This document shows, one piece after another, positions 12,406-57,707 of a DNA stretch of 64,000 nt (positions are counted from its first letter, which is position 1; every line of letters starts with the position of its first letter). Under the pieces are notes generated by a model. The model was not told the origin of the DNA and searched no databases. It worked only from the letters and a program-made list of their open reading frames with translations. This DNA is from Planctomycetota bacterium (GTDB lineage Bacteria > Planctomycetota > MHYJ01 > JACQXL01 > JACRIJ01). The position numbers were made by a program, and so were the translations under genes. Where the stretch lies: the NCBI GenBank assembly GCA_016220095.1, contig JACRIJ010000044.1, positions 4,191 to 68,190 on the forward strand. The letters run 5' to 3'.

Positions 12406-12409
12406 TTTG

Positions 12410-14819: not shown

Positions 14820-14876
14820 TGTTTTTTCGCTCTCACTTTTACGCTCGCGACCGAATGCCCGATACCGTTCATTTCT

Positions 14877-16934: not shown

Positions 16935-17231
16935 TGTAATTTGTTAAACAATTTTAGCCACAGCCCTTCGGTTCCCTCAGGATAAAAGCGCACAGAGGAC
17001 TCAGAGAGCGACGACAACTTTGTCAAGTTGGCCGTCCCGTCAAAGCCAAAGACGAGCATTTGGTGGCAGTTTACAGGCAATACAGCCATTGACGTTTATG
17101 CGCGCTAAAAATTGTCATTAATCTCAGTGTACTCTGTGTTCTCTGTGGCAAATTAGCGCAGTCACGCGCCGGGACGATATTTATTGTTGTGGCTCAGTAC
17201 GTTCTGTGATTTCTTTGTAAAGAATCAGGCG

Positions 17232-31928: not shown

Positions 31929-34900
31929 TTACGGCGTCGGGTCTATCAGCGGTTCAATATAAAATATCTTGCCCTGACTCGTGCCTATCATATATTTATC
32001 GGCGTCAATATCGTACGAAACCGAAGTAATGTCATGGTTCTGTCCAAAGTAATAATAATAACTTGTGCCGCTGTCGGGATTGCTTACAACCGCGCCGGCT
32101 GAAATATCAATGCCATATATCTTGCCGTTGTTATTGCCTATATATACGAGGCCGTCGCCGATGGTCAAAGGCGTACAGGAAATCTGCACGGCTTCAAGCT
32201 GGATGACAAACGAAGATGCGTCAAATGCCGCATCGGTCTTCGGGGTATTATTCGTTGGTATGGCGTAGAACTTGCCGCCGCTGTCGCCGAAGAACAACAT
32301 GCCCGAATCATCCCACGGAGCGGCCGTAATGCCCGCAGGCACCCTATTGCCTGTCAGTGTATGAGCGGCTCCGGGCCACGGATAACTGGCCACCTCGGCC
32401 GCAAATCCGCCGTAAGGCGATACCGCGTGCACCCATCCTTTATTGGCATTCTGCGAACCGTCATCGGTGACATACAGGTAACTTGACAGCATGGTAGGCG
32501 ACTTGAAGCTCCCGTTCGTATTGCTTATTGAGGCATTAACGACTCCGCCGTCAACATTAATTCTTTCAATCAACGCGCTTCCCGCAACAAAATCAGTTCC
32601 GAGAAACAACCATGTCGTACCGGCATCAACCACAGAAGAAGGCACCGTGTAAATGGCCTTGTCAATAAGTATGTGGCTCACGGGGAAAGACGCCACGCGC
32701 ACCTTGGTGGCTTTATTATAACCAAACAAATATGCCTTGGCATCATCACCGGTGCCTCCGCAATAAATGTTATTATCGTCGGTAATCACCGGCGCTGTAG
32801 CCGGGCTGTCCGTGGCAGGGCTAATGTCAAGGCCGCCAACCCACGGTCCTGCGGCAATATTCAGCGCGGCGCCTGTATCAATCAATTTGACTATCTTGCC
32901 TTTCGTAGTGCCGAAATATATCGTGTGCAGGATTTCCACAACATTAGCGTCACCATCGCAATCGCTTGTATCAACTTCATTATCCCACCATGGCGTACCG
33001 ACGATGTCGCCGCTCGCATCCGGAAGGTCGTAGTAATACACGGGGCTCTTAAGTTTCCCGTCATTGGCAAGCACATAGATGCGGTCAACGGTATTCGCGC
33101 CGTTTATATTACGCGATGCCACATAAGTGGAATACCATCCGGGCACGCCCAGGAATCCAAAGGCATTGGTCGGGAATCCCTGCACAGCCCCCTTAATATC
33201 CGGGTTTGCCGTATAAGTCCAGTTAACTGCCGCACTTGTAACTGTTTCAGTTGCGCTTCCTGCGCCGTTGCCGTTTGTAGCGGCATCCCTGTATTCAAAT
33301 GTCACGCAGACCGACTGGCCGTCCGCAGGCGCGGTATCAATCACTGCAACGCTGTATCCGCCCGGCAGATATGTATCGTCAAAATATACATCAGCCACTG
33401 CCAGTGAAATCGGTCCGTTTTGTTCTATCGTAAGGTGCCTGCCTCCGACAGTGGCATTATAGAATGCCACGGCAGTTAGGGAGGTTATTGCCGCGGTATT
33501 GGTAATATAAAATCCTTTGCCGCCGGTATTAGTATTATATACATCCAAAGCAGTAATGTTGACAGTGCCGTTCAATGTAATATCATAGTATGCCGTCGCG
33601 GGAATTGAACTCAATATGGTGCCGCCGGACGCGGTAAACGCCGCCGCAGAAGCAACCGTAATTACCGAACCGTTGGTCAGGGTAATTGAAGAGCCGGTAT
33701 TCATCGAAAGAGTGCCGCCCGAAACGGTCAAGGTGCCGGAAGCCGGCGCGACCGTATCGCCTATGGTCAAAGCGAGGCCGTTAAGGCTGAAAGTGCCGGA
33801 CTGCAGGGTCAGCAGATTCTTCACGACAACGTTACCGGTCAATTGAGTTGTTATAGCATTTGTATTTATTTTCAGGTTATAAAAAGTTCCCGCGGGAATA
33901 TTAGGCGACACCAACTGGTTGTCCACCGTAACAGTGCCTTTATCGGTACTGATAGTACCCCAGGCGGTGGTATTGCCGGTAACTTTAAGTTCATCGGCAG
34001 TATCGCCGAAAGTAACCGTACCCAGATTATTAAATGTCCCTGATATCTTAATGGTACCGCCGTTAGCATCGTTGGTATCTGAATCCGGCATCTGTATATT
34101 GGAACCGACCTGATTAGTAAAATTCCCGGTCACATTAAGAGTCCTGAAATCCTGCACCGTAATAGTGCCGGAATTATCAACGTTTCCGGAAATCGTCGCA
34201 GAACCTGTAAGGGTATTAATAGCCCCAAAAGTAATAGAGGCGTTTACGCCGAGAGTAGCGTTGCCGCTTATTGTAGTTGTAAGAGAACCCGCTGTTGCGC
34301 CGACCGCAATACTCGCGGTACCGCTCATTGTTACATTACCGTCTATAAGAAAAACCTTCGGACTGGCGCCGCCGGTGGAATATGAAAATGTTGCCGATGT
34401 CATATCAAAACTGCCATGTATTGTAAAACTTATATCATTGCCGCTTATGGACAATGTCCTGCCGTTCTCCATTGTCAAACTGCCTATCTCCACTGAACTT
34501 GAAATAGACGGGTTATTCGTAACTCCAGCTGTAGGTATTACAACCTTGCTGTAGTTCCCAGGAATGGTTAAATTATCTTCCCAATTCAACGGGTCCGTCC
34601 ACACAGCGCTGGTATCGCCTACCCAGGTCTTCTTAGGCCATCTGATAGAACCTGACGTATCCGGGTCAGCGCCGTTCTGCGGGTCTATTTCGTAAGTGCC
34701 GCCGCTGTTCGCGCCGCCGTACGCGGTAAAAGAAATAGCCGGGTTCTGGGCGCCACCGGCCGCCTGGACGTTATTGGTGCAATACGCGTCAAAAGTGCAT
34801 CCGCTGAAGGTCATTCCAGACATGGTTGTATCATTCAATACAAGGTAAACGCCGGACGCAGAGCCGGTTGTCTTACTGAATACGACTCTGTCTAAGGCAA

Positions 34901-37900
34901 ATGAAGGGTCGGCACCTACATTAGCCATGACCATTCCAGTATCCGCGGGATCAATCACATTCAATCCGTTTATATCCACGGTACCTGAAGTACTGAATGT
35001 CATTGAATACCTGTTGCCATTATTAACGGCATTGATTGCCGGTTTTGCTAAAGTATCCGTAGTGCTGAAATCGCCGTTAAATGTCAGCGTACCAGCGGCT
35101 ATTGCCGTTCCGAGGCGCAGGTTACAGCTGTTCTGCATGTCAAGCTTGCCGCTCGCGTTTACGGCAAGGGTTGACTGAACGGTCACATCATCGCCGGCAT
35201 CAAGGGTTAATTTGCCCGTTCCTGTAATTGTAATCTTAAAGAAAGACATGGTACCCGATGTAGCGCCGCCCAGCCCCGTAAATCTTACTTCGGAATCGCC
35301 GCACGTGAACGCGCCACTGTTGATAAGCGAGAATGTGCCCTTAAGATCTATGAAATTCGTGGTAACGCTTTCCACGAGAGTACCGCCATCCACGGTAATG
35401 TTGTTGAATTCCGTGGTTGCGGAGCCGTTTATAACGCCTGAAGCGGTCGTGAACGTTACCGTACTGGAACCGGAATTAAACGTGCCGCCGTTATTTGTCC
35501 AGGCGGCCGCAATCTTGATGGTTGATACGCCGCTTAGAGACAACGACTTTGTATTGGGAATAGTTATATTCGCAAACTGGGTAATATTGTTCCCTGCCAC
35601 GGTTGACGGCGTTCCACTAAATATAACCGTAGAACCGTTTGCCGTAAACGAACCGTCATTAGTCCAGATATTGTTTACGGTTATGGTTTTACCGTTGCCA
35701 TCAAGGACCGCGTTATTGTTTATGGTTATGTTATTCGTGGTAAAGTTGCCGCCGGCGCTTACGGTTGCCGAGGTATTGCTGATGGTTATACTATTGTATG
35801 TCGTAAACGCCGTGACATTCTGTATAGCCGTACCATTATATTCAATTGTTCCGTTGGTATTATCAAACGTAGTTGTAACCGACAATGAAGATTTTATCTT
35901 CAACATACCATTGACGGTCAGGATATTGGAAACGCTTAAAGCGTCGTTAGCCGTAAAAGTATACGTAGTAGGAATTGTAAGGTTATAGAACGCGTCGCCG
36001 CCGGAATCAATTGTACCGTTTGAAGACCGTAAAGTTACGGTAGTGGTATTCGGCGTAAACACCGCAGAGCCGCCGTTATTCCAGTCAGCATTAACCGTAA
36101 TGTTCGCGTTTAACACAAGCGTGCCGCTATTGGTAACTTTACCGTTAATGGTGGAAGATGCTGAACCTATGGTAAGCGAACCGCTATTGGTTACATCGCC
36201 GTTTGCCGTGAAAGCAGGAGACGAAATTGAAATAGAACTGCCAGAACCTGTCGTAAAGGTGCCGTTTATTGTCAAAGAACCGAGGCCGCCGGAGCTGAAC
36301 GTAAAGGTAGGCACGCCTGCGGCGCCGCCGTCCGCATCAAGCGTAAGGTTGCCGTTTAAGGTCAGTTGTTTGTCGGCCGCCGCGGCAGAAACCGAAGCGC
36401 CATCCTGAATCTGTATGCCCGCAACGGTTGAATTAATATCAATGCTTACAGGATAATTGGAAGCGCCTGTCGGGAACACAACTTTATCCCCTGCCTGAGG
36501 TTTGCCGATAGGATTCCAGTTATTATCAACGCTCCATAAATTGCTTACAGTGCCGACCCATTGTTTCGCGGGCCATCTGATTGAACCGGTATTATCAGGA
36601 TTGTTGGCAGGCGGCGCCGGAAGCTGGGAACCGTTATTGTCGTCATTCTCATAGGTCCCGCCGGCCTTAGAACCGCTGGCGCCGAGGAGGTTGACCACAA
36701 GGCCGCCGGCTATCGCGCCCGACGGGGTAAAAACGTTATATTGGCAATTCGCGTCAAACGAACAACCAGCGAACGAATAACTGCCCGCTGTAAAGTTTAT
36801 TTTTATATACGTCCTGCCGGCAAGATACGCACTACTCGTAAATGACGCGTAATCTATGTCAAAACCGGTATTTGCCGTATTCGATATGCTAAGACCGTTC
36901 GCATCAGGATTATTGAAAGTAACATTGTTTATCAACACCTTTCCGGAAGCACCGGACACGGTAAATGAAAAATACGCGCCTTTGTCTGTTACCGTAGGGG
37001 TCAAACCGCTCGTCTGGAACAACCCCTGTATAGCGGCAGAACCAGCCGTAGAAGGCGTTCCCAAACGAAGCACAGAACTTCCGTTCATGGATAATGTACC
37101 GGCACTTGTCACGGTCAACGCATTTGACACCGTTATATCACTGCCGGCATTCAATGCAAGCGTTCCGGTGACCTGAACATTATAGAACGTAGAAGCATTC
37201 GCGCCTTTTACTTCCGCGGTCGTGCCCGTAAAATATACTGTAGAACTGTTCGCGGTAAACGTCCCGTCGTTCTGGAAAACGTTCTTGACCTTAGCCTGGG
37301 CTATGCCGGCGTCAATGCTCATCGTAACGCCGGTATCAACGGTAAGGTTATAGAATTCCGTAACCGCACTGCCCGCAATGGACGAAGCAATGCCGGTAAA
37401 TATTACAGTTGAAGATCCGGTCGTAAACGCGTTGTTATTCGTCCATACGCCATAAACCTTTGCCGTACCTATAGCTCCTATCTGCAGGGTTTTTGTCGCG
37501 CTTATCGTGACATTATTAAATTCCGTTATGGAAGTGCCGCCGATAGTTGAAGGCGCGCCGCTAAATGTTATCGTTGAAGTGCCCTTCTGGAACGTACCGT
37601 TATTGGTAAAATCGCCGCTGACCACGATCGTATAAGCGCCCGCATTAACGACGGCATTCGTTGCAATAGTCAGCGTGCCGTTAAGCGTCACGACGGCGCC
37701 GAATGATACTGTTGCGGATGTATTTGAAACCGTTATATTATTATAAGAAGACGGCGCAGTAGGTATGGACTGGACCACGGTACCGTTGAATTCCAAAGTG
37801 CCGCCGGTTGAATCAAATGCCGCTCCGAACGTTATACCGGATTTCAATTTCAGGGTTCCGGGCAGTGTCAAAGTTCCGCCGGCATTCATGCTTATGCTAT

Positions 37901-40900
37901 CGTTAGCGGTATAAGCGCATCCCGAATTTACTTTCAAACTGTAGAATGACTGGCCGCCGCTTGCTATGGTGCCTGCAACGCCGTTAAAAGTAACCGTGCC
38001 TGAAGGAGTCGTTATGATATTGGTATTTGACCATGAACCCGTAACAGTCATATTGCCGGGTGTTAGCGTGCCGGAATTAGTCAATGAGCCTTTTAATGTA
38101 AAAGCGGTGGCATTGGTAAATGTACCGCTGTTCGTAAAATTACTTTCCATGGTAAAAGTAACCGCATTGGATACGCTCATCGTACCGCCGCTGGTTACGG
38201 CGCCTTTTAACAAAAGAGACGAAGTGGCGCCGGCGCATGAGTAATTAAACTGCCCCACGCCCTCGCCGAGGTTTGATTGTATAACGAGTGTGCCGTTAAC
38301 GGTAAGCTTGATATCATTCGCAGAGGCCGTAAGTACAGCGCCGTCCTGGATTTCAAGGGACGCAAGAGTCGTGGTTATATTCAGGGTAGGCTGTGCTAAC
38401 GCGCCTGTAAATTCGCTTGGACTTGGAATAATAACGCGTTCCGCAGTGGAAGGCACGCCGGACGGCGTCCAATTGTTTGCAGTGCTCCATGAAGTACTTA
38501 CGGAACCGTTCCATTTCTTCGCGGGCCACTGGATGGAACCCGTATTGTCCGGGTCGCCCGGATTCTGCTGGCCGGCCGCGTTGTCATTTTCATAAGCGCC
38601 GCCGGATTTCGCGCCGCTGTAGCCCTGGATTTTCACGACCATGCTTGCGGCAATACTGCCGTTGGCGGTCTGGACGTTATATTGGCAACCGCTGTCAAAA
38701 GAACAACCGGTAAACGCGTAAGTAGAACTGGCAACAATTTTATCTATCTTAAGAAACACACCGACTCCGGAGGAATCCCCGGGGTCAGTAAAGCTGACGT
38801 TGTCAACATCAAATCCTGTCCCTGCGTTCGTCGTAATATTCAAACCGTTGTCCCCAGGATTCTGGAAATTCAATCCGTTAAGCACCACTATGCCGGCGCC
38901 GCTGACCGTCCCCACAGTAAAGGCGTATTTGGAACCGGTATCGGTAACCGTAGGAGTCGTGCCTGAAGATGTAAACGTTCCCTCAATAGTCGCGCCGGTA
39001 ACGCCTAAGCGCAATATTGAATTGCCTGTAAGATTGAACGTGCCGCCTGAAAGCACTGTCAACCCGGTTGAAACGGTAATGTCATCACTGCCGTCCATCG
39101 TCAGAGTACCGGCTATTTTCAGCTGATAGAATGTTGTAGCATTCCCTTCAATCGTACCCGTACTGCCCGTGAACCTTATAACCGTGGAGCCCGGAGTAAA
39201 AGTACCGATATTATTCCAGATGTTTTTCACCCTGACATCGTTAGTAACATCCGACAATGTCGCGCCTGTATTTATTTTCAGGTTATTGAAAACCGTACCC
39301 GCGTTACCCGCAATCTGAGACGAACCGCTGTTGAACGTTACTGTTGAATTGGACGCGGTAAATGTGCCGGTATTGCTGAAAGTCCCGTTCACTTTAATTT
39401 CACTTACGTTTACCGTAAGGGTATTTGTAACGGACAAGTTATTGAATGTGGTAACCGCCGTACCTTCTATAGTTGAAGCGGCGCCTGCGAATGTAACATT
39501 AGAAGTCTGCGACGTAAATGTACCGTTATTTGTCCACTTGCCGTTAATTGTAATGGTATTGCCGCCGCCAATGAACACGGATGAATTGTTTACAGTCAGG
39601 TCCACTGCCGCGATGGCGCCGCCGGCGGTAACGCCGCCCGCGGAAGTATTGCTTACGATAATAACATTATACGTCTCCGCAGGCATGGTCTGCGCGGAAG
39701 TTCCATTAAAATCAACGGTACCGCCCGCCTCGGTAAAGGTTGTTCCGAACGTGATGCCTGTCTTAACCTTAAGATAACCTGAGAGGGTAAACGTTGATGA
39801 TAGAGCAAACGTATCCAAAGCGGTATATACGGAACCCGTAGGTATTGTAACGCTGTTGAACAATGCGCTCCCCATGGTCACGTTACCGGTGGTACCGTTT
39901 AAGGTTACCGTACCAGCGCCTGGTGTAAACGTACCGCTGTTTGTAAAACTGCCGGTAATTATCATATTGCCGGTTGTAAAATTACCGGTATTATTCAGAT
40001 CTCCTGTAACTGCGAATGACGGCGAAGTTGACGTAAAAAAACCCGCGTTCGTCAGCGTGCCTGAAACGTTGAATATCTCAGCGGCCGAACTTACAGTTCC
40101 CTCGTTCTGAATAGTACCGGCATTAAACAAAGAACCCACGCCTGATGATGTAAAATTCAGGTTAGCAGCGGAACCGTATCCCTGGTTGGATTCTATAAAA
40201 AGCTGGTTATTAACTCTGAGAGTTCTATTAGTGCCGCTTGTGGAAAACACCGTACCGTCATATATCATAAGGCTGCCTACGGTGGCATTAATATCCAATA
40301 CGGGGTCATTTGCCGCGCCGACTCTGTCGTCAGGGCTCGGTATAATAACCTTGTCTGAAGCCGTTGGAATGGTACCCGTATTCCAATTGCCCGCGGAACT
40401 CCAGAATTGATTGACATCGCCTTCCCATCTGATGACGCGCCATACGATTGAGCCGCCGCCCGCGACAACGCCTCCCCCCTTATCATTTTCGTAAGTCTCG
40501 CCGGTCCTTAATCCGCTGTCGCCGCTCATAGTAACCGCATTATTCACCACGCCGACATTATTCGTAGTTGACACGTTATACTGGCATCCGTCATTGAACG
40601 TGCATCCCTGGAAGCTGTAAGTATATGCGGCTATTGACGTATAACCGAGGGTAATGTATGTACCCTGGAACAAACCGTCGCTATCGGAAAAAGTTACGTT
40701 ATCTATGTCTATGCTGGTATTAGCATTAGCGGCAATATTTAAACCGTTATCGTTGGGATTCTGGAAAAACAAACCGTTGAGTAAAACTTTTCCTGAATTA
40801 TTCACAGTAAATGAATACTTCGCACCGGTATTGGTAACCACCGGCGTACTGCCTGAAGTGCTGAAAGTCCCGCCCTGAATCGTACATGACACCCCTACGC

Positions 40901-43900
40901 GCAGATAGCATGTATCGGCCATATTCAGAACGCCTGTAACGAGAACCGCGTTATTAGCCTTCAGGTCGTCGCCGCTGTTAAGATTCAATGTGCCGCTCAC
41001 CGTAGTATTGTAAGTTATAAGCGGATTCGTTCCCGCAAGACTGCTGTTACCGCCGTTGAACTCAAGAGTATCATCACCGGCTGTAAATGACCCGTTATTT
41101 GTAAAGATATTCTGTATCTTCAAAGTGCCTGTCGCAGTTGAAATGCCCAGCACGGTGCCGTTAGAGATTTCCATATTATAAAAATTCGTAACCGTAGTAC
41201 CCGAAATATCGCAGGATACTCCCGTAAAATAAACCGTGCTGAAAATCTGCGTAAAAGCGCCGTTATTTACCCAGTTCCCCTTGACTTTCAACTGGTTTAT
41301 CGCGCCTATAGTAAGCGTTTTGACGGTAAATATTTCGATGTTATTGAATTCTGTAACTGAAATGCCGCTTACGGAAGACGGCACGCCCTTGAATACCACT
41401 TTTGATGTTGACGGGGTAAACGTACCGTCATTAGTCCAGTTACCGGTAAGATTGACCGTATATGCCTGGGCATTGAAATTAGCCGATATGCCTATTACAA
41501 TATCTCCGGAAACGGTTACATCGCCGCCGAGTGAAACCGCGGCGCTTGTATTCTCTATATGAAGGTCGTGGTATGACGCGCCACCGGGCGGCTGGGGCAC
41601 TGTCTGGACCGCGGTGCCTGAAAATTCCATTACACCGGCTGTTGACGAAAAAGTGCCGCTCATCGTAATTCCATTTTTTATCTTTAAGGTGCCTTCCACG
41701 CTTAAAGCGCCGCTGACGGTCAACGAATCCGCCGCACTGTAAACCGCGGAAGATATTATCGTAAGATTATTAAAACTTGAACCGCCGCTTGTAAGTGATG
41801 AATTTGCGCCTTTCAACGTAATGGTTCCGGCTCCGGCTGTAAATGTGGCCGAATTGGTGAATGAACCTGATATGCTTACTGTTACCGGCGAAAAAACGCC
41901 CGAATTCGTCACACTGCCGCCGATGGTAAAACTGGCGGAAGATGCGGCATTTGTAAAAGAACCGGTATTGGTAAGATTGCCGTTTATTGTAAACGTTATC
42001 GCATTGCTGACGGAAATGGCGCCGCCGTTGGAGACGTCGCGCTGGATTTCAAGTTTTGAAGTAGTGCCGCCGGAAGTAAAATTCAACTGCCCCGCGCTTC
42101 CTTCGCCCAGGTCGGATTCAATAGTTAATCCGCCCGTTATAACCAACTGCCGGTTATTTCCGGTAGTATCAAGCCGCGAACCGTCTTCCAATATCAAACT
42201 GCCTATGGTGGCATTGGTATTTAGAATGGGATACTCCGTCGTACCGTTATAAACTGGGGCGGTGCTCGGACTGCCGATCTTAACCTTTTCACCCTGTACG
42301 GGAACTCCGTCCGGGGCCCAATTCGCGGCCTCGCTCCAGTTTTGCGTGGAGCCGCCGCCGTCCCATTGCCGTATCGGCCAAACCATATCGCCACCGGCTA
42401 CGTAACCACTGCCGCTCTCGTATTCGTATAGTTCATCGCCTTTCTCGCCGCTTGCCGCAATCATGCTTAAGGCGCTTGCCGCCGCGCTGGCAGGGATGTA
42501 TACGTTGTACTGGCAATACCTGTCAAAACTGCATCCGGAAAAGACATATTTATTGGCGGTAATGCCGGCCATTTCAAGACGCAGGTAATAACCTGTCTGC
42601 AATGTATCGCTATTTGTAAAATTAACGTTATCTATGTTCAGACTGGCCGCGCTGACGATCCGCATGCCGTTATCGTCCGGGTTGGCAAAATTGAGCCCGT
42701 TTATGTTAAGAATGGCAACCGCATTGTTCACCGTAAAAGAAAATTTCGTGCCCGTATCGGTAAGCGTCGGGGTATCCGTAGTTTGAAAAGTTCCGTTTAC
42801 GGTTACTGCCGGTGTGCGTATAGTGCCGTCATTGCTCATGTATAACGTACCCGTGGTTGAAACGGTCAACTGATTCGTTACCGTAACCACATCGCCCGTA
42901 TTAACAACAAGTTTTCCGTCACATTGCAGATTGTAAAAACCAAGATTGGCCCCGGCAACGCCGCCATTCGTGCCGTTAAAAATAACCATTGAAGTCCCGG
43001 CTGAAAACGTGCCGCTGTTTGTGAACGTACCCCTGAGTTTGACCTGCCCTATCGCGCCTATGGAAAGCGTACAGGTATTCTCAAGCGAAATATTATTGAA
43101 CGTGTCCGCAACGACGCCGTTTATCACGGATGAAGCGCCGGTGAAAATGATCGTTGAATTGCCTGAAACAAAACCGGCTGTTGCCGCGTTATTGTCCTGC
43201 CAATTGCCGGAAACCTTTATGGTTTCGCCGGTATTGGTTATAGTCAATGTCGCATTATTGCTTATGGTGACATTATTGAACGTAGGCATGCTTATGCCCT
43301 GGACTTCGGAATTTGCGCCCGCGAATACAACGGTGGAAGAACTGCCGTTGAAAGTGCCGTTATTGATAAAGTTGCCGTTAATGGTAATCTGGGAATTGCC
43401 GCCGGATAACGTTGCGCCCTGGTTGATTGTCAGGTTGCCGTTCACAACAATATTACCCTGCAAGGTTACAGTACTGGAAAGATTGTTGATTACGAGATTA
43501 TTGTAGGTCTTAGCAGGAATACTCTGCGAAATTGAGCCGTTTAATTCCAGCGTACCGCCTGCGGGCGTAAACGTCGCAGGAATGGATATCGCCTTCTGTA
43601 CCTTTAAATAGCCCGCGAGAACCAACGTATCGGTAATAGTAAAATCGTCCGTAGCAGTATAGGAAGACGTTGAAGGGAAATTAACCTTAAAATAACTCCC
43701 GAGGCCTGATGCGATAGTCCTGTTTACGCCCTTGAAATAAACCGTACCCGCGCCGGGAGTAACCATACCCGTGTTATCCCAGTTGCCGAATATATTTATG
43801 GAAACCGGCGTTAGCGCGCCTGAATTTACCATATCGCCGCGCACGGTAAAAAACGCATTCGCCGCGGCAATATTGTTTGTTACAGTGCCGGTATTGAACA

Positions 43901-45248
43901 AATTGCCTTGGATGTCAATGGAGCCTGTCGTGATATTCTGTATGGTAAAATCGCCGTAATTATTGAAATCGCCGCCCACGTCCAGGTAAACGTTCGTACC
44001 TGCCGCGACGCCCCATACGACTGAACCGGCCGCACCCGCTCCGGTATCCGCTTCAATGGTAAAATCACCGGCAACGTTTAACGTCCTGCTGCTGTTAGAG
44101 GTCAGGTTGCCCCCGTCTTCGATAAGAAGAGAAGCTACATTTGCGTCCGTATTTAAGTTTGGCGCGAACTGGTTTGCAAGCGTTGATTCATCGGGAATAA
44201 TTATACGATCGGCGCCTGTAGGAGTTGCATTAGGATTCCAGTTATTGGATGAGCTCCATTGGGTAGTGCCGTTGCCGGCGTCCCATTTCTTTTCCACCCA
44301 GACGATGCTCCCGGGAGTTATTATGCCGCCGCTTGTCTTATCGTCTTCCCATGTCACACCGCCTTTTGTCCCGCCGTATCCGACCATGGATACGGAACTG
44401 TTCGGCGTACCCGCGGTAGTCCTTATGTTATACTGGCAATAGGTATCAAACGTGCAATAGCTTACGCTGTAAGGCGCCTGCGACCAGTCGTTCAGCAGAA
44501 ATTGCAGATAAACGCCGGCTTCAAGCCCGTCGCTATCCGTAAAGTTTATGCCGCCGATGGTCTGCGTCAGTGACGCGGTATTGACAATCTTGAGGCCTTC
44601 GTTATCGGGATTCGTTATGTTCAAATCGGAAACATCGAGAGAACCGCCGTTCTGAACTATGAAAGAAAGCTTTGAACCCGTATCGGCAATGCTCGGAACG
44701 GAACCGCTTGAATTAAACGTGCCTTCAACAACAACTGCCTTGACATTCATCTGGCAGGAGTTTACCATGTAAAAAGACGCACCGTTGTTAACCTTAAACT
44801 GGTTCAACACGGTAATCGTATCGCCGGCATCCATGGTAAGCTTGCTTGAAACCGTAACGTTATAAAAAGTAGGCGCCACGAGGCACGTGCCAATGGTGGA
44901 ATTACTGCCGTTGAATTCCACGGTTGACGTACCGTAATTGAAAGTGCCGTTGTCAATGAATTCGCCGCCTATCCTCAGGGTCGTTACACCGGCTCCCAAA
45001 GAAAGCGTTTTCATGTCGTCTATCTTCAAATTACTAAATGACTGCGTGGCACTGCCGTTGACGGAAGAACTCGTGCCCGTGAATATGACGGTGGAACCGG
45101 TGCTGGTAAAAGTGCCGTTATTCGTCCACGCATTGACAATTTTTACCGGCATGGCAAGTGTAAATGATTTGGCATTGATGATTTCCAGGTCATAGAATTC
45201 CGTCGTGCTTGTGCCGATAACGTACACGGGAGAACCGTTACAACTCAA
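31929..45248 (-). CDS. Giant secreted repeat protein, downstream part (4439 aa): six super-repeats plus a C-terminal beta-propeller. It is almost certainly continuous with 45311..48106 through a -1 frameshift.
   Basis: The ORF track gives 4439 aa. The modules recur with (G)SI(R/Q)WP(A/K)K(K/Q/T)W(N/V)G...W(S/T)xxxNWxPxG(V/K)PxxxxKV(I/V)IP, (G)C(S/T)FDxxCQYN(V/I), L(N/V)G(L/V)NF(Q/A)NP(D/G)DNG(L/M) and ITINGN(F/W)xNNGTFT. The last 550 aa or so are propeller-like (IYCGGTGDDAKAYLFGYN, GLVYIGNNNGKIYGID). Confidence 0.85.
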   Translation of the reverse strand: MSCNGSPVYVIGTSTTEFYDLEIINAKSFTLAMPVKIVNAWTNNGTFTSTGSTVIFTGTSSSVNGSATQSFSNLKIDDMKTLSLGAGVTTLRIGGEFIDNGTFNYGTSTVEFNGSNSTIGTCLVAPTFYNVTVSSKLTMDAGDTITVLNQFKVNNGASFYMVNSCQMNVKAVVVEGTFNSSGSVPSIADTGSKLSFIVQNGGSLDVSDLNITNPDNEGLKIVNTASLTQTIGGINFTDSDGLEAGVYLQFLLNDWSQAPYSVSYCTFDTYCQYNIRTTAGTPNSSVSMVGYGGTKGGVTWEDDKTSGGIITPGSIVWVEKKWDAGNGTTQWSSSNNWNPNATPTGADRIIIPDESTLANQFAPNLNTDANVASLLIEDGGNLTSNSSRTLNVAGDFTIEADTGAGAAGSVVWGVAAGTNVYLDVGGDFNNYGDFTIQNITTGSIDIQGNLFNTGTVTNNIAAANAFFTVRGDMVNSGALTPVSINIFGNWDNTGMVTPGAGTVYFKGVNRTIASGLGSYFKVNFPSTSSYTATDDFTITDTLVLAGYLKVQKAISIPATFTPAGGTLELNGSISQSIPAKTYNNLVINNLSSTVTLQGNIVVNGNLTINQGATLSGGNSQITINGNFINNGTFNGSSSTVVFAGANSEVQGISMPTFNNVTISNNATLTITNTGETIKVSGNWQDNNAATAGFVSGNSTIIFTGASSVINGVVADTFNNISLENTCTLSIGAIGQVKLRGTFTNSGTFSAGTSMVIFNGTNGGVAGANLGFYNLQCDGKLVVNTGDVVTVTNQLTVSTTGTLYMSNDGTIRTPAVTVNGTFQTTDTPTLTDTGTKFSFTVNNAVAILNINGLNFANPDDNGMRIVSAASLNIDNVNFTNSDTLQTGYYLRLEMAGITANKYVFSGCSFDRYCQYNVYIPASAAASALSMIAASGEKGDELYEYESGSGYVAGGDMVWPIRQWDGGGSTQNWSEAANWAPDGVPVQGEKVKIGSPSTAPVYNGTTEYPILNTNATIGSLILEDGSRLDTTGNNRQLVITGGLTIESDLGEGSAGQLNFTSGGTTSKLEIQRDVSNGGAISVSNAITFTINGNLTNTGSFTNAASSASFTIGGSVTNSGVFSPVTVSISGSFTNSATFTAGAGTITLKGANSSLTSGGSSFNNLTIISSAVYSAADSLTVSGALSVEGTLKIKNGITMSGTFSSTAGVMEFSGTAVQTVPQPPGGASYHDLHIENTSAAVSLGGDVTVSGDIVIGISANFNAQAYTVNLTGNWTNDGTFTPSTSKVVFKGVPSSVSGISVTEFNNIEIFTVKTLTIGAINQLKVKGNWVNNGAFTQIFSTVYFTGVSCDISGTTVTNFYNMEISNGTVLGISTATGTLKIQNIFTNNGSFTAGDDTLEFNGGNSSLAGTNPLITYNTTVSGTLNLNSGDDLKANNAVLVTGVLNMADTCYLRVGVSCTIQGGTFSTSGSTPVVTNTGAKYSFTVNNSGKVLLNGLFFQNPNDNGLNIAANANTSIDIDNVTFSDSDGLFQGTYITLGYTSIAAYTYSFQGCTFNDGCQYNVSTTNNVGVVNNAVTMSGDSGLRTGETYENDKGGGVVAGGGSIVWRVIRWEGDVNQFWSSAGNWNTGTIPTASDKVIIPSPDDRVGAANDPVLDINATVGSLMIYDGTVFSTSGTNRTLRVNNQLFIESNQGYGSAANLNFTSSGVGSLFNAGTIQNEGTVSSAAEIFNVSGTLTNAGFFTSTSPSFAVTGDLNNTGNFTTGNMIITGSFTNSGTFTPGAGTVTLNGTTGNVTMGSALFNSVTIPTGSVYTALDTFALSSTFTLSGYLKVKTGITFGTTFTEAGGTVDFNGTSAQTMPAETYNVIIVSNTSAGGVTAGGAIAAVDLTVNNSSVFIGGGNTITINGKWTNNGTFTSQTSNVTFAGAASTIEGTAVTTFNNLSVTNTLTVNVSEIKVNGTFSNTGTFTASNSTVTFNSGSSQIAGNAGTVFNNLKINTGATLSDVTNDVRVKNIWNNIGTFTPGSTVIRFTGSTGTIEGNATTFYQLKIAGTLTMDGSDDITVSTGLTVLSGGTFNLTGNSILRLGVTGATIEGTFTSSGTTPTVTDTGSKYAFTVGTVSGAGIVVLNGLNFQNPGDNGLNITTNAGTGFDVDNVSFTDPGDSSGVGVFLKIDKIVASSTYAFTGCSFDSGCQYNVQTANGSIAASMVVKIQGYSGAKSGGAYENDNAAGQQNPGDPDNTGSIQWPAKKWNGSVSTSWSTANNWTPSGVPSTAERVIIPSPSEFTGALAQPTLNITTTLASLEIQDGAVLTASANDIKLTVNGTLVIQSNLGEGVGQFNYSCAGATSSLLLKGAVTSGGTMSVSNAVTFTMESNFTNSGTFTNATAFTLKGSLTNSGTLTPGNMTVTGSWSNTNIITTPSGTVTFNGVAGTIASGGQSFYSLKVNSGCAYTANDSISMNAGGTLTLPGTLKLKSGITFGAAFDSTGGTLEFNGTVVQSIPTAPSSYNNITVSNTSATVSFGAVVTLNGTLTIATNAVVNAGAYTIVVSGDFTNNGTFQKGTSTITFSGAPSTIGGTSITEFNNVTISATKTLQIGAIGTAKVYGVWTNNNAFTTGSSTVIFTGIASSIAGSAVTEFYNLTVDTGVTMSIDAGIAQAKVKNVFQNDGTFTANSSTVYFTGTTAEVKGANASTFYNVQVTGTLALNAGSDITVSNALTVTSAGTLSMNGSSVLRLGTPSTAGSAAIQGLFQTSGLTPTVTDKGAYFSFTVSGASGKVLINNVTFNNPDANGLSISNTANTGFDIDYASFTSSAYLAGRTYIKINFTAGSYSFAGCSFDANCQYNVFTPSGAIAGGLVVNLLGASGSKAGGTYENDDNNGSQLPAPPANNPDNTGSIRWPAKQWVGTVSNLWSVDNNWNPIGKPQAGDKVVFPTGASNYPVSIDINSTVAGIQIQDGASVSAAAADKQLTLNGNLTLDADGGAAGVPTFTFSSGGLGSLTINGTFTTGSGSSISISSPAFTANGDVTNSGSLTIGSASSTINGKVTNSGTLVLNANITVNADWNNGGSAVFTPNTTTVTLRSSNGTIDSGGDAFYNLTIPTTYTFTANDALSVSNILTVNGMLKIKSSLSVTTTFDNTNGTIEYNGTAIQNVTAFTTYNSITISNTSATVSAGGNFTTNNITINNNAVLDGNGKTITVNNIWTNDGSFTANGSTVIFSGTPSTVAGNNITQFANITIPNTKSLSLSGVSTIKIAAAWTNNGGTFNSGSSTVTFTTASGVINGSATTEFNNITVDGGTLVESVTTNFIDLKGTFSLINSGAFTCGDSEVRFTGLGGATSGTMSFFKITITGTGKLTLDAGDDVTVQSTLAVNASGKLDMQNSCNLRLGTAIAAGTLTFNGDFSTTDTLAKPAINAVNNGNRYSMTFSTSGTVDINGLNVIDPADTGMVMANVGADPSFALDRVVFSKTTGSASGVYLVLNDTTMSGMTFSGCTFDAYCTNNVQAAGGAQNPAISFTAYGGANSGGTYEIDPQNGADPDTSGSIRWPKKTWVGDTSAVWTDPLNWEDNLTIPGNYSKVVIPTAGVTNNPSISSSVEIGSLTMENGRTLSISGNDISFTIHGSFDMTSATFSYSTGGASPKVFLIDGNVTMSGTASIAVGATAGSLTTTISGNATLGVNASITFGAINTLTGSATISGNVDNSGTITVQDFRTLNVTGNFTNQVGSNIQMPDSDTNDANGGTIKISGTFNNLGTVTFGDTADELKVTGNTTAWGTISTDKGTVTVDNQLVSPNIPAGTFYNLKINTNAITTQLTGNVVVKNLLTLQSGTFSLNGLALTIGDTVAPASGTLTVSGGTLSMNTGSSITLTNGSVITVASAAAFTASGGTILSSIPATAYYDITLNGTVNITALDVYNTNTGGKGFYITNTAAITSLTAVAFYNATVGGRHLTIEQNGPISLAVADVYFDDTYLPGGYSVAVIDTAPADGQSVCVTFEYRDAATNGNGAGSATETVTSAAVNWTYTANPDIKGAVQGFPTNAFGFLGVPGWYSTYVASRNINGANTVDRIYVLANDGKLKSPVYYYDLPDASGDIVGTPWWDNEVDTSDCDGDANVVEILHTIYFGTTKGKIVKLIDTGAALNIAAGPWVGGLDISPATDSPATAPVITDDNNIYCGGTGDDAKAYLFGYNKATKVRVASFPVSHILIDKAIYTVPSSVVDAGTTWLFLGTDFVAGSALIERINVDGGVVNASISNTNGSFKSPTMLSSYLYVTDDGSQNANKGWVHAVSPYGGFAAEVASYPWPGAAHTLTGNRVPAGITAAPWDDSGMLFFGDSGGKFYAIPTNNTPKTDAAFDASSFVIQLEAVQISCTPLTIGDGLVYIGNNNGKIYGIDISAGAVVSNPDSGTSYYYYFGQNHDITSVSYDIDADKYMIGTSQGKIFYIEPLIDPTP

Positions 45249-45310
45249 CTTTGAAGTGCCGTAGTTAAAAGTTCCGTTATTTGTTAACGTGCTGTTATTG
45301 GCGTTTAATG

Positions 45311-48106
45311 TTATGTATAGGTGCCGGCGCTGAGCGTCGCCAGGGAATTTATCGTCAGCGTACCGTTCACCAATGTATTGCCCGCGAGGGAAACCGCCGC
45401 GGAGGTATTGCTTATCTTGAGGTTATTGTACGTCCACGCCGGCACTGTCTGGGCCGCTGTGCCGTTGAATTCCACCGTGCCCGTGGTGGACGAAAACGCG
45501 CCGCTTACGGATATCGTACTCGTTACCTTGATCGTGCCGGGCAAGGTTAAATTGCGGTCAATTACCAAACTGTCAAGGGCCGTATATACCTTGCCGTTAT
45601 TAATATCCACATCGTAGAAACTTGAAGCGCCTCTGGTGATATTGCCCATGGAACCATTAAAAATGACCTTTTTGTTATTGTGCGTATAGGAAGCGGAATT
45701 GGTCCAACTGCCGCCTACGGTCACGTTGCCGGGGTTAAATGAACTGGTATTAACGACGTTTCCGCTGATAGTAAAAGTACCGCTGACACTTGCGGTAAAA
45801 CCGGCGTTATTTTCAACGTTCCCGCTGATGGTGCAATTCAGCGCCGTTATGCTTATCGTGCCCGAAGATACGACGTTTCCCGATATGGTAAGCTGTGAAC
45901 CGACCACGGACTCGTTATAAGTAAATGCCGCAACGCCGTTTCCGTCATCAGGATATAATACCAGGGCGCCGCTTATGGTCAACGTCCTGCCGACGCCGTC
46001 AGTCGTTAACTGCGCGCCGCTTTCAATTTCAATTGACGCCGCAACGCCGTTGGCATTAAGGACGGGATTATAGGTGACTTTGGGAATCCGCACCCTTTCC
46101 GTCGCCAACGGAACTGAAGCAGGGCTCCAGTTGCCATTGGTATTCCACGAAGTAAGATTGCCCACAGTGCCGCCAACCCATGTCTTTTTCGGCCATCTTA
46201 TGGAACCGTTATCGTCAGGAGCGCCTGCGGTAACCTTGCCGAGGGACTGGTCGTCTTCATACTGACCGCCGCCTTTGCCGCCGGTATAACCCTGCATGGT
46301 AACAGTCTCAGTATTCCATGTCCCTGCGGATAACGTACGCACGTTAAATTGGCAGGCAAGGTCAAATGTGCAGTTTGAAAAAGTATATGAAGTGCCTGTA
46401 GGGTCAAAAGAAAAGTTCAGATAAACGCCGGATGCCTGGCCGTCGGTATTCGTAAAATTAATGCTGGCAAGGCTGAGAGCCGCGGGTTTTGTGGTAAATT
46501 TCATGCCTTCGTTGTCCGGGTTCTTGAAATCAAGCCTGGAAATACTGATATTGTTGGCGGAACTGAAAGTCCACGTAAAATACGCGCCCCTGTCAATAAC
46601 GGTCGGTGACAATGTGCCGTTAGCCGTAAAGTTTCCGCTTATTGTCGCGGACGTACCTACTCGCAAAGTACAATTATCCGTCAGGGTCAAAGTTCTGCCC
46701 GCGGCTACTGTTATAGTATTAACGGCAAGATCGTCGCCGGCGTCAAGAGTTAACGCGCCTGTAGCCGAAATAGTGCACGTGTATAATGTCAACGGCGCCG
46801 TACCGAGCAATGCACAGGAGCCGCCGTTATAAGTCACTATCCTTGTCCCTGGGACAAACGTTGATTGGTTGTTCGTCCAATTGCCGTTGACCGTATAGTC
46901 GGCAAGCGCAGTTGCGGACACTGTAGCGCTTATGATTATATTATTAAATGTCTCCGCGGCATCTGGCAGAATGGGATTGCTTCCTGAAAATACCACCGTA
47001 GAAGTACCTTCTGCAAATGCCACATCTCCGATGTTATTATCCCACGTACCGCCGTTGATGGTTATGGTATTGGCATTGGCATTTACGGCTGTCGCGCTTT
47101 GCATAAAAAATGTGCCGAGAACTGAAAAAGACCTGCTGATAGTAAACGTAGCGCCGGCCTTGTTCAACGTAAGATTATTGAAAGACGAATCCGCGGCGCC
47201 GCCAAGGGTAGCAGTATTGTCCGCGGCAGTCATGGTTACGGTATAGTTGCCGGGATTAAATGTGCCGTCGCATGTCCAGTTGTCCGTTACAATAATATTT
47301 GTATTGGCTGTCATGACACAGCTTGCGTTGATCTTTAATCTGTAAAATTGCGTGGGATTTGAACCCGCTGTAACAGTCCCGGCGGTCCCGTTGAATTCCA
47401 CCGAACATGTATTGCCTTCAATAAATGAGCCGGTTTCAATAAAATCGCCTTTCACGCGCAAAGTGCAGGTTGCCGTACTCGCGTCAAGGGTCATGCCTGT
47501 GGGAATAACCATGGAAGGCACTTCAAGAATGGAATTAGCTACAAAGATCTCAAAAACGCCGCTGTTCGTCCATGTAAAATTATTGTTTACAACCAGTTTA
47601 GTCGCCGTGGCATTACCCAGGAAAACGAGGTTATTTGAGCCGTCAAGGTCGGCAAACTCCAGGTTATCCACGGATAAGGTATCCGTAGCATTATCAGCTT
47701 CTATATAAACATCCGAACCTGAAGACATCTTCAACTTAAGAAAACCCGTTCCGGTCAGATAAGCGGTCGCATTGCCGCTGGAAAGAAGCTGGACATCATC
47801 CCGGACGAGCAGGTTATTGTCCATAATAAGCGTTGCGCCGGCCCTTATCTGAAAATCATTCACCTCGGACGGCTGATTCAATATGACGTAATCGCCGGCA
47901 TTATTAATAATCGCCAGATCGCCTTCCCTGGGCACGCTGTTGGAACTCCAGTTCGCAGGATCGCTCCATGAAATGCCGTCTCCGCCGCCGTCCCATGTCC
48001 TGGTCGCGGCAACCGCTCCGCCTGCAAAAAGGCATAAAAACACAAGACAAATCATTGCGCGTAAAAACAGACGCCTGAATCTGACAGGTTTAAAAATCCC
48101 TATCAT
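45311..48106 (-). CDS. Giant secreted repeat protein, upstream part (931 aa, signal peptide plus two super-repeats).
   Basis: The N-terminus is MIGIFKPVRFRRLFLRAMICLVFLCLFAGGAVAATRTWDGGGDGISWSDPANWSSNSVP. AGGAGG lies 4 nt upstream of the ATG at 48106. The internal module start GSIRWPKKTWVGGTVGNLTSWNTNGNWSPASVP is the same as in 31929..45248. It ends ...LTINSLATLSAGTYT*. Confidence 0.85.
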   Translation of the reverse strand: MIGIFKPVRFRRLFLRAMICLVFLCLFAGGAVAATRTWDGGGDGISWSDPANWSSNSVPREGDLAIINNAGDYVILNQPSEVNDFQIRAGATLIMDNNLLVRDDVQLLSSGNATAYLTGTGFLKLKMSSGSDVYIEADNATDTLSVDNLEFADLDGSNNLVFLGNATATKLVVNNNFTWTNSGVFEIFVANSILEVPSMVIPTGMTLDASTATCTLRVKGDFIETGSFIEGNTCSVEFNGTAGTVTAGSNPTQFYRLKINASCVMTANTNIIVTDNWTCDGTFNPGNYTVTMTAADNTATLGGAADSSFNNLTLNKAGATFTISRSFSVLGTFFMQSATAVNANANTITINGGTWDNNIGDVAFAEGTSTVVFSGSNPILPDAAETFNNIIISATVSATALADYTVNGNWTNNQSTFVPGTRIVTYNGGSCALLGTAPLTLYTCTISATGALTLDAGDDLAVNTITVAAGRTLTLTDNCTLRVGTSATISGNFTANGTLSPTVIDRGAYFTWTFSSANNISISRLDFKNPDNEGMKFTTKPAALSLASINFTNTDGQASGVYLNFSFDPTGTSYTFSNCTFDLACQFNVRTLSAGTWNTETVTMQGYTGGKGGGQYEDDQSLGKVTAGAPDDNGSIRWPKKTWVGGTVGNLTSWNTNGNWSPASVPLATERVRIPKVTYNPVLNANGVAASIEIESGAQLTTDGVGRTLTISGALVLYPDDGNGVAAFTYNESVVGSQLTISGNVVSSGTISITALNCTISGNVENNAGFTASVSGTFTISGNVVNTSSFNPGNVTVGGSWTNSASYTHNNKKVIFNGSMGNITRGASSFYDVDINNGKVYTALDSLVIDRNLTLPGTIKVTSTISVSGAFSSTTGTVEFNGTAAQTVPAWTYNNLKISNTSAAVSLAGNTLVNGTLTINSLATLSAGTYT

Positions 48107-48231
48107 ACATCCTCCTATATATATTTATTCCATTACCAAACCGCTAAAGGCGGTTCCGGAGATTGAATCGTCACTGCCTGCCACAGTCCTGTCGCAATCC
48201 TGAGCGGAGCGAAGGGAGTAAAACGAAGGGC

Positions 48232-48300
48232 AAATTCCCTGCAGCTTACTGCAGGGAGCTTCAATCCCGCCCCGCATGATTTGTTCATGCGGGTTATTTT
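48232..48300 (+). repeat. Family D hairpin element copy d (reverse orientation), immediately followed by a terminator-like stem-loop with a T-tract on the plus strand.
   Basis: aaattccctgcagcttactgcagggagcttcaa, then cccgccccgcatgatttgttcatgcgggttatttt (stem ccgcatga/tcatgcgg followed by TTATTTT). Confidence 0.5.
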
Positions 48301-49423
48301 GATTGCTGATCTGATATGTCCTTCTCCGACTGCTTAATTTCATTTCCGTCGCCGCATTCAGGATTGAACGACCGCTCATCCTTGTGCCTGCTCATTCAGG
48401 TGTGTATCCCGAGTTTCGGAAATACAATCACAGAAAGCAGTATCCATACGCCGACAACGGCAATCATTATCAATAATGACGAAATATCCATACGCGTAGT
48501 CCCATTAGTGTCTTACGTTTCAACTTCTGCACAAAAAGCACAAAAATTTAAATGTTCCGAAAACTCCAAACACGAACCCCTAAACTATAAAGCAACATAG
48601 CCGCAACCAAACAGTTGTTCGCCTTATGAAATTCTAAGCACTAAGCTCTAAATCCTAAACAAATTCTAAATCCAAATTCTCCAAACCCGGCGGACGACCA
48701 TGTTTCGGTCATTTGAGTTTAGATATTGTTTAGGCTTTCGGACTCGTCCTACGAAGCCTTGGCGCAGTAGGATTTAGGGATTAGAGTTTTATCATCCGTC
48801 AGAATGTTTGGCATTTTTCTGTAAATATTCGCGACTTCGTGTCTTCGCGGCAAAAATCGCCGCAGTTCTCAGTGTTCTCTGAGGTTGACGTCTTGTTGCG
48901 ACTGTCTATTTTCTACATATATTATACCACAAAACACGGGATTTTGTCAAGGCGGAAAAGATAATTTTTGTATCGCCTCCGTGAAAGTCGTAATTTCATA
49001 AAAAACCAAAAACAGGATTTTGTAGAGACACGCGATCGCGTGTCTCTACAGAGTTTGATTATATTTTAACTCTTGAAAGCGACCTTCACTGAGTCCTTAC
49101 TAAATTTTGCAACCCGTCAGTAAACGGGTAAACACGAACTACGGACGTTCTTTAACAGGGACTCTACAAGACCTTAAACGGGATACAACGACCTAACGAA
49201 GAATAAATAATGGGAATCCGATATCCAAGATCCGGCGCTCGGTACCCAACGCCCGGAACCTGAAATTCTAAACCCGGATATCAACCTGTTTCCTATTATA
49301 TAAGTATAGTATTATCAATACATTACACCTTAAAATCAACCTATTCGTTATTTAACATGAATTTTTCATGCTTTTTGTAAAAGACTATAAAGATTTTATT
49401 ACAAAAAAGCCGATAATAGGAGT

Positions 49424-49486
49424 GGATTAGACGATTGAAAGATTAGAAGATTACAAGATTAGAGGGTTACAAGATTTAGAAGATTT
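49424..49486. repeat. Decamer AGATTnnAAG array.
   Basis: gattagacgattgaaagattagaagattacaagattagagggttacaagatttagaagatt. Confidence 0.8.
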
Positions 49487-49519
49487 TGGACGTTCGTCCT
49501 TGATTTTTCATATTTTCGT

Positions 49520-49948
49520 ATGGAGGCGGTTATGGAGAACCTGAAACAACGGTTATTTCAAGGCAAGCGTGACTCCGCGGCCCAGGGCAGGCATCAGGGC
49601 GGCGCCCTTGCGTATGGATACACAAAGGCCTATAATCCTGAGCTGAAGGCCGTTACCCTTAAAGTGGAACCCTTTGAAGCAAGCGTAGTCATGAAGATGT
49701 ACAGGGAATATCTGAAATTCCGCAGTCTGTCGCGGGTGGTTGATTCCCTGAATTCCTGCAACATCCCTACGCGCAACGGCAAGTCATGGTCGCGGCCTGC
49801 CGTAGGCTTTATCTTATCCAACGAACTCTATCTCGGCAAGGTCAAATACGGAACCGTAAAGGCAAAAGGACTTCACTGCCCTATTATCTCGCCAATAGTA
49901 TTCAATAAAGTCCAGCAATTAAAACAACAGAACCTGAAAAAGAAATAA
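49520..49948 (+). pseudogene. Remnant of a large serine recombinase. Only the 'recombinase' domain is present; the N-terminal resolvase catalytic domain and the C-terminal zinc ribbon are missing.
   Basis: The 142-aa ORF reads QGRHQGGALAYGYTKAYNPELKAVTLKVEPFEASVVMKMYREYLKFRSLSRVVDSLNSCNIPTRNGKSWSRPAVGFILSNELYLGKVKYG. This matches the recombinase-domain pattern G..PYGY...E..VV..IF..Y..G.S...IA..LN..GI.T..GK.W....V..IL.N..Y.G. Upstream of it there are only repeats, so the catalytic domain is absent. Confidence 0.55.
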
Positions 49949-49972
49949 GAACCCGTCTTGGGGGATAAAAAA

Positions 49973-51130: not shown

Positions 51131-51167
51131 CGAAGTGGCGAGTAACCAGCAGCGAAGTGTGTCTCGT

Positions 51168-51295
51168 TGAAGCTCCCTGTAGCAAGCTACAGGGAATCTT
51201 CTCGTCTAAGGAAAACGAATATTGTATTGTGCCTGCTTACCCTGCAGCAAGCTGCAGGGAATTCGCAGGCAGTGACGATTAAAGTCTCGTCCAGT
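51168..51295. repeat. Composite hairpin repeat element (family D), copy b.
   Basis: tgaagctccctgtagcaagctacagggaatcttctcgtctaaggaaaacgaatattgtattgtgcctgcttaccctgcagcaagctgcagggaattcgcaggcagtgacgattaaa. Confidence 0.7.
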
Positions 51296-57441: not shown

Positions 57442-57707
57442 GCGCGCAAATCCTCTCTACGAACGAAAATGAAAAAGGAAAAATGAATAATGAAGGACGA
57501 GACGGCGAAATCTATGGGGCAGAGGTCCTTGCCGATTTAATGATTTGATGACTGGAAGACTTGATGATTTGACGATTACGCGTCCGTCGTCAATCATTAA
57601 ATCACCAGCTCATCCAGTCATTAAATCACAGCAGTCCTTCATTCTCCATTTTTCATTATTCATTATTCGTATGAACCGCAGCGATATTGCAACGTTATTT
57701 TCAATTC

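Follow-up and report, generated by a model that had tools for sequence, protein, structure and literature searches.

The 64,000-nt stretch of DNA analysed here (hereafter, the window) covers positions 4,191 to 68,190 of contig JACRIJ010000044.1 from the Planctomycetota metagenome-assembled genome (MAG) GCA_016220095.1, and it carries on its minus strand two adjacent open reading frames (ORFs), ORF A of 931 aa and ORF B of 4439 aa, that GenBank lists as separate genes. These two "genes" are the two halves of a single gene of about 5,390 residues, a relationship that the public annotation missed, and the pair is very probably the outcome of an unprogrammed, net -1 break in the reading frame of that one gene. 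The first-pass annotation of this DNA, made from the letters alone, had already proposed one interrupted gene, and the proposal is borne out by the alignment of internal repeats, by profile mapping, and by the colinearity of the joined protein, in single alignments, with relatives that are encoded by single ORFs.

ORF A ends with ...LTINSLATLSAGTYT-TAA. Near the junction the -1 frame, which is open from approximately 45422, reads ...LYITLNANNSTLTNNGTFNYGTSKLSCNGSPVY, and it then runs through ...LYITLNANNSTLTNNGTFNYGTSK LSCNGSPVY..., stop-free as far as 31929. When the frames are joined after the ACA codon at 45316-45314, with ATA from 45314 as the next codon, the resulting protein of 5,392 aa contains zero stops. 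No stop interrupts the ORF-B frame for about 4,460 codons, far beyond chance given the off-frame stop density of 5-6 per 100 codons in the same 16.2-kb gene. At the junction itself the deposited DNA is ...TATACATAACATT..., which with one added base would become, for example, TATACAATAACATT, and the peptide predicted across the junction is ...SAGTYT(I)TLNANNSTLTNNGTF.... The lengths and coordinates that the first-pass annotation gave for the two ORFs agree exactly with the ORF list, its peptide strings and its -1 direction into ORF B are likewise correct, and the conserved module that it cited from elsewhere in the protein, ITINGNFINNGTFNGSSSTVVF, does exist, at ORF-B residues 622-643. Its position for the break (45298-45300) was about 15 nt off; the true boundary, between ACA and TAA, lies at 45314/45313. 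The features of the locus are collected in Table 1.

Table 1. Features of the split giant gene, in window coordinates; both ORFs run from the higher to the lower number.
Feature	Position	Strand	Remarks
Reconstructed single giant gene	31929..48106	-	5,392 aa once both frames are joined
AGGAGG, Shine-Dalgarno-like hexamer	48111..48116	-	4 nt 5' of the ORF A ATG; putative function
ORF A	45311..48106	-	931 aa; ATG start, TAA stop
Super-repeat 2	44301..46195	-	Joined-protein residues 638-1269; cut by the frameshift
Window open in both frames	45311..45422	-	Must contain the frame change; a shift at 45425 puts a stop in the hybrid
Lesion site, TAT ACA TA ACA	45309..45319	-	Profile optimum; net -1 nt; ACA on both sides of the stop
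22 unannotated codons, ITLNANNSTLTNNGTFNYGTSK	45249..45314	-	ORF-B frame; match the repeat consensus
TAA stop of ORF A	45311..45313	-	Middle of super-repeat 2
ORF B as annotated	31929..45248	-	4439 aa; TTG start at 45248

Much of the evidence for a single gene comes from the repeats of the protein itself. The joined product begins with a signal-peptide-like segment and continues with eight super-repeats in tandem, each of about 640 aa (residues 36-638, 638-1270, 1270-1910, 1910-2556, 2569-3179, 3194-3826, 3845-4490, and a partial eighth at 4490-4968); a C-terminal region of about 420 aa closes it. Junction residues 931/932 correspond to position ~294 of 633 in super-repeat 2, and thus fall inside a unit rather than between units. 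Alignment to the joined repeat 2 covers its positions 1-633 for repeats 3, 4, 6, and 7, positions 17-623 for repeat 5, and positions 4-633 for repeat 1, at 30-38 % identity throughout; the E values are 1e-112 to 1e-134 for repeats 3-7 and 1e-55 for repeat 1. The alignment remains in register at the junction, where AGTYTITLNAN of the joined repeat stands opposite AGAYTIVVSGD, AQAYTVNLTGN, and GGNSQITINGN, and is followed by the invariant NNGTF motif.

Profile scores tell the same story and also locate the break. A hidden Markov model (HMM) built from repeats 3-7 gave the joined repeat 542 bits, versus 255 for the part contributed by ORF A and 258 for the part contributed by ORF B. In a codon-by-codon scan of the shift position through the 37-codon window in which both frames are open, the best score (542.4 bits) was obtained directly after 45314, with a steady fall to 481 bits further upstream. 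This peak places the frame change in the final one to four codons of ORF A. Likewise, AlphaFold modelled the joined super-repeat 2 as a continuous, all-beta solenoid (mean predicted local distance difference test score, pLDDT, 86.3; predicted template modelling score, pTM, 0.81), with pLDDT values of 96-98 in the 10-residue blocks around residue 294. Because the modelled solenoid is continuous and confident there, the TAA would cut the fold mid-way.

Relatives elsewhere provide a second line of evidence. The closest of these, P0044 (5,630 aa), P0045 (4,867 aa), and P0046 (5,770 aa), are each encoded by one ORF. A single high-scoring segment pair (HSP) runs across the junction both against P0044 (joined residues 22-4239 to 13-4434) and against P0045 (20-3462 to 9-3514). 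L001 (JACQVV010000436.1), a locus in a Planctomycetota MAG from the groundwater study of He et al. (2021) and the only related locus found in GTDB genomes, encodes this architecture too, in one open frame at least 4,675 codons long. The relatives also resemble ORF A at their N-termini. By eye, ORF A appears to begin with a signal peptide, composed of a basic n-region, the hydrophobic stretch AMICLVFLCLFAGGAVA, and then AVA/A. In P0044 and P0045, as in ORF A, the WDGGGDG..W.D..NW motif comes after a signal peptide, and in P0046 a signal peptide is present and the motif is divergent; a signal peptide with a WDGGGDG start is common to three of the four relatives (P0044, P0045, and L001).

No named family can be given to the giant protein, and membership of any such family was rejected in the absence of a Pfam or NCBIfam match above threshold or a significant structural match. 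Specifically, Pfam returned only sub-threshold similarities to G8 and Amnionless, NCBIfam returned zero family matches, and a Foldseek search of the Protein Data Bank (PDB) with the super-repeat model placed the beta-helices of autotransporter passengers (Hbp, SepA, Ag43) and of HxuA at the top with non-significant scores (best E = 0.03, template modelling [TM] scores of 0.14-0.23). Neither an autotransporter beta-barrel nor a two-partner-secretion (TPS) domain was detected in the protein with Pfam or NCBIfam. By its architecture, it works like a secreted, giant extracellular beta-helical adhesin or surface protein, and "giant genes" of such a kind have been described in Planctomycetota and other bacteria of the Planctomycetes-Verrucomicrobia-Chlamydiae (PVC) superphylum (West-Roberts et al. 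2023, bioRxiv 10.1101/2023.11.21.568195).

The super-repeat itself represents a large, uncurated family that lacks a Pfam or NCBIfam model above threshold. Among 1.84 billion representatives, a profile search retrieved 8,040 relatives at E<=1e-3, 618 of them at E<=1e-30. Conserved features of the unit include a W..W.GG...W....NW start and the motifs NPD(N/D)xG and C.F(D/N)..C(Q)(Y)N. The relatives (P0044-P0050, and L001 at 3816-17840) carry long C-terminal regions that differ among them. In the giant protein, the last ~456 aa (31929-33299, minus strand) are without a Pfam match, and recurring motifs of the GK(I/F)(Y/V) type suggest a beta-propeller fold for this region.

Public records hold the identical frame break. 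ORF A corresponds to GenBank MBI5359737.1 (HZA48_04050, "hypothetical protein"), from a Planctomycetes bacterium MAG, with 100 % identity over 931 residues on a contig of 69,070 bp, and ORF B corresponds exactly to MBI5359736.1 (HZA48_04045, also "hypothetical protein"), with M in place of the TTG-encoded Leu. The two are annotated as adjacent genes and the frameshift is unflagged. Among roughly 15 billion proteins clustered at 90 % identity, each of the two entries forms a singleton cluster. Exact-protein look-ups of ORF A, P0001, and ORF B produced no match, and an exact DNA scan of the JGI metagenomes with anchors on both sides of the junction yielded 0 matches. A protein-seeded metagenome scan found relatives at 30-41 % identity only, and a scan of GTDB genomes found a single relative, at 33 % identity.

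Signals that would permit the ribosome or the polymerase to negotiate the break are lacking at the site. An in-frame slippery heptamer of the form X XXY YYZ is missing from the overlap, where the only XXXYYYZ string, TTTCCCT at 45393, lies out of register and would cost about 30 bits as the shift point. No stimulatory RNA structure is evident, the minimum free energy (MFE) of the 140 nt downstream being -24.9 kcal/mol versus a shuffle mean of -26.1 (z = +0.39), and a conserved frameshift is absent among the relatives, the closest of which are single ORFs. Without heptamer, structure, or conservation, programmed -1 frameshifting is out. Transcriptional slippage is also out, as homopolymers in the interval 45430-45240 do not exceed 4 nt (the longest run being the TTTT at 45270) and units of 2-6 nt are nowhere repeated in tandem three or more times. 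Stop-codon readthrough is excluded by further zero-frame stops immediately after the TAA, and a prfB-like +1 shift, which would lead into another frame than the continuing -1/+2 one, is excluded as well. The earlier description of the site as neither a slippery heptamer nor a long homopolymer is therefore accurate. The analysis thus demonstrated that the pair originated as a single gene, located its break, and showed that recoding signals are lacking.

The choice that the first-pass annotation had left between an authentic mutation and an assembly error still stands. In either case, the frame would have been broken at ...TAT ACA/(N)ATA ACA... (45314/45313) by the net loss of one base. This could reflect a 1-nt deletion (e.g., ACA-ATA to ACATA) or an insertion of 2 nt or 5 nt (the sequence holds an ACATA/ACATT near-tandem pair), as changes of -1, +2, and +5 are equivalent modulo 3 and have the same effect. 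Marginally preferred is a very recent truncating mutation that at least the dominant genotype would carry in its DNA. Ribosomes would stop at the TAA and release a 931-aa, signal-peptide-bearing fragment of 1.46 super-repeats, and the 13.3 kb beyond it would go essentially untranslated without having decayed yet. Young bacterial pseudogenes usually carry one lesion and are strain-specific. The turnover of pseudogenes is also rapid (Antonov et al. 2013). We adopt one gene with a genuine, very recent lesion only tentatively, as a reading that is close to evenly poised, and within it the reality of the lesion and the fate of the product are what we infer.

The most serious alternative accepts the same single gene and attributes the missing base to an assembly, scaffolding, or consensus artefact, or to a minority variant, such that the gene of the organism would be intact and would encode all 5,392 aa. 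This explanation is a substantial possibility, for all of the evidence for a single gene applies to it equally. Several points weigh against a genuine lesion and toward such an artefact. ORF B is perfectly intact across 13.3 kb, and the lack of a second lesion over its ~4,460 codons is just as compatible with a gene that is unbroken in the organism; a second copy or assembly of this population was found in no collection searched. The sequence belongs to a MAG; the related MAG that holds L001 was produced with MEGAHIT and IDBA-UD scaffolding from 150-bp reads, and the accession and locus-tag style of the window's MAG suggest an origin in the same project. Homology-validated singleton frameshifts are expected to be mostly sequencing errors (Antonov et al. 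2013). Finally, Illumina-only metagenome assemblies are reported to have given two adjacent giant genes that became one once an error in the local assembly had been corrected (West-Roberts et al. 2023).

Other observations count against the artefact. Homopolymers and repeats are the usual spots for indel and mis-join errors, and the site is neither. The longest k-mer that the junction shares with other parts of the window measures 12 nt, and DNA identity between paralogous repeats reaches ~77-82 % at most, over stretches of a few tens of nucleotides. Repeat-driven mis-joining is accordingly unlikely and repeat-mediated mis-assembly unsupported, as no junction repeat longer than 12 nt occurs elsewhere in the window. 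Nor does any other conserved gene of the 64 kb appear frameshifted. Eleven conserved window genes cover their full Pfam profiles (those for ArgRS, TIM, an aminotransferase, Ham1, YicC, Gmk, TilS, an acyl-CoA dehydrogenase, FTCD_C, the BsoBI endonuclease, and CoaC/CoaB), and hence the contig is not indel-ridden. Contigs from De Bruijn graphs consist of k-mers that are present in the reads, and a clean 1-nt deletion in such a contig would normally exist in at least some molecules.

A genuine frameshift could also have left two separate products, namely, ORF A as a secreted protein of 931 aa and ORF B translated from the TTG at 45248, from a nearby start, or by re-initiation past the TAA. GenBank does list HZA48_04050 and HZA48_04045 separately, and the TTG, which is the first canonical start, lies 63 nt past the stop. 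We nevertheless consider this arrangement very unlikely. The TTG falls within a repeat unit, in a confidently modelled beta-solenoid, and none of the 14 candidate starts in the ORF-B frame, the TTG included, is preceded by a Shine-Dalgarno (SD)-like sequence, in contrast to the AGGAGG of ORF A. An ATGA/TAATG-type coupling motif is absent, and promoter and terminator matches between the ORFs occur at chance level only. Independent expression of ORF B is therefore unsupported by any SD, promoter, or terminator signal. Moreover, no signal peptide is visible by eye in ORF B, three of the four relatives examined carry theirs at the position of the ORF A N-terminus, and the relatives are single ORFs.

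Less probable still is a shifty stop. Here, in some of the ribosomes, peptidyl-tRNA-Thr on the ACA at 45316-45314, with UAA in the A site, would slip by -1 or hop by +5 and thereby generate one short and one giant isoform in a fixed ratio. Identical Thr codons do surround the stop (ACA UA ACA), the second ACA (45311-45309) is in the ORF-B frame, such that landing on it continues into ORF B, and the product of a +5 hop from ACA to ACA reaches 540.5 bits, less than 2 bits below the best model. On the other side are the missing heptamer and stimulatory structure, and the arrangement is found in none of the relatives examined. Because Thr makes up 14 % of the residues and ACA 2.8 % of the codons in the giant gene, a second ACA within two codons is unremarkable and compatible with chance. 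The efficiency of stop-hopping is low. Hops between matched codons around a stop have been documented for engineered constructs in E. coli, and their natural use is rare (Atkins et al. 2016). A specific form of this idea, in which the stop is real and ACA-UAA-(C)A, together with the second ACA 5 nt further on, acts as a low-efficiency shifty stop such that one mRNA mostly yields the 931-aa fragment and occasionally the protein of ~5,390 aa, is highly improbable; were it true, a natural chromosomal stop-hop would set the dose of a giant surface protein.

Phase variation was also among the options raised by the first-pass annotation, and large surface adhesins are its classic targets. Antonov et al. 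(2013) do include phase-variation clusters among frame transitions. Reversible on/off switching of the giant surface protein by slipped-strand mispairing is nonetheless the least credible of these explanations and unsupported, given that 45430-45240 holds no simple-sequence tract (the homopolymers and short tandem repeats sought above) and that the ACATA/ACATT pair is imperfect and present in two copies only.

The main value of this result concerns annotation. MBI5359737.1 and MBI5359736.1 are really halves of one secreted beta-solenoid protein of ~5,390 aa, and the 4,439-aa entry, with its false start and without its signal peptide, would mislead surveys of gene length, predictions of secretion, and the building of families. 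A real lesion would mean that a natural, groundwater-type population has very recently lost, or truncated, its largest surface protein. An artefact would provide another case in which giant genes in short-read MAGs require curation at the level of the reads. Whether real or artefact, the understanding of mechanism would be unchanged.

Several features of the neighbourhood also merit description. An element of ~100 nt occurs as inverted copies at 48163-48264 and 51167-51283, which bound a block of ~2.9 kb directly upstream of the giant gene. Within this element is the hairpin CCCTGCAG-yAAG-CTGCAGGG, a third copy of which lies at 51240-51259; one copy has compensating changes in the stem (TGTAG/CTACA), and the copies have the motif GCAGGCAGTGACGATT in common. 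Three occurrences of this hairpin were counted versus 0 expected by chance. The element could be similar to repetitive extragenic palindromes (REPs) or miniature inverted-repeat transposable elements (MITEs), or it could represent the ends of a decayed mobile element. Inside the flanked block, a 142-aa ORF (49520-49948, plus strand) has the Pfam "Recombinase" domain (PF07508) as its only match. No resolvase catalytic domain occurs upstream of it in any frame, and the 1.1 kb from 48400 to 49500 is devoid of any ORF; the 142-aa ORF looks like the remnant of a truncated serine recombinase. It is adjoined by a gene for a trypsin-like peptidase (49958-51130), also within the inverted-repeat-flanked block.

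Downstream of the giant gene, the next gene (31885-29036) encodes a PQQ/BamB-like beta-propeller together with an fn3 domain and a right-handed beta-helix, and it is followed by a gene for a HEAT-repeat protein. Elsewhere in the window, coaC (Flavoprotein, 58256-57708) and coaB (DFP, 57441-56635) are separate minus-strand ORFs within 56635-58256. They were considered as a second split gene and rejected as such, for a stop-rich spacer of 266 nt lies between them and there is no frameshift. This spacer holds a sequence that would encode ...NEKWRMKD..., and a similar repeat coding for KMKNE/NEKWKMKDE forms the C-terminal tail of the coaB ORF; a small repeat element may have inserted around coaB. 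Finally, the region 11452-13870 (minus strand) encodes a restriction endonuclease of the BsoBI type that covers the full Pfam profile (1-313), preceded by an ORF for an N6/N4 DNA methylase with an overlap of 86 nt, and the two look like a type II restriction-modification pair.

Among known systems, the split gene closely resembles young single-lesion pseudogenes and the singleton frameshifted genes (fs-genes) detected by GeneTack (Antonov et al. 2013). As in those cases, adjacent ORFs on the same strand but in different frames are colinear with one homologue, and here too there is no recoding motif, no downstream ribosome-binding site (RBS), and no conservation in relatives. It differs in that the gene is 16.2 kb long and is validated mostly by its internal 640-aa repeats and by relatives at 30-33 % identity, rather than by close orthologues. 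The split giant genes of West-Roberts et al. (2023) offer another parallel, being adjacent giant ORFs that can be merged on a single metagenome-derived contig of the PVC superphylum. The error in that study was demonstrated and corrected with reads, however, whereas the present site has no repeat or low-complexity feature to account for an error.

Programmed -1 frameshifting, as in dnaX and the transposases of insertion sequence (IS) elements, is similar insofar as the protein is continued by the -1 downstream frame, and stop-hopping or bypassing of the gene 60 type is similar insofar as matched ACA codons surround the stop, as in synthetic stop-hops. The present site differs from both in having no X XXY YYZ heptamer, stimulatory structure, SD-like stimulator, or conservation. 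At the protein level, the predicted all-beta solenoid, the signal peptide, and the adhesin-like repeats recall the autotransporter and two-partner-secretion adhesins, such as Hbp, SepA, Ag43, and HxuA. The giant protein is set apart from these by its non-significant Foldseek scores and by the lack of a Pfam or NCBIfam match or a detectable barrel or TPS domain.

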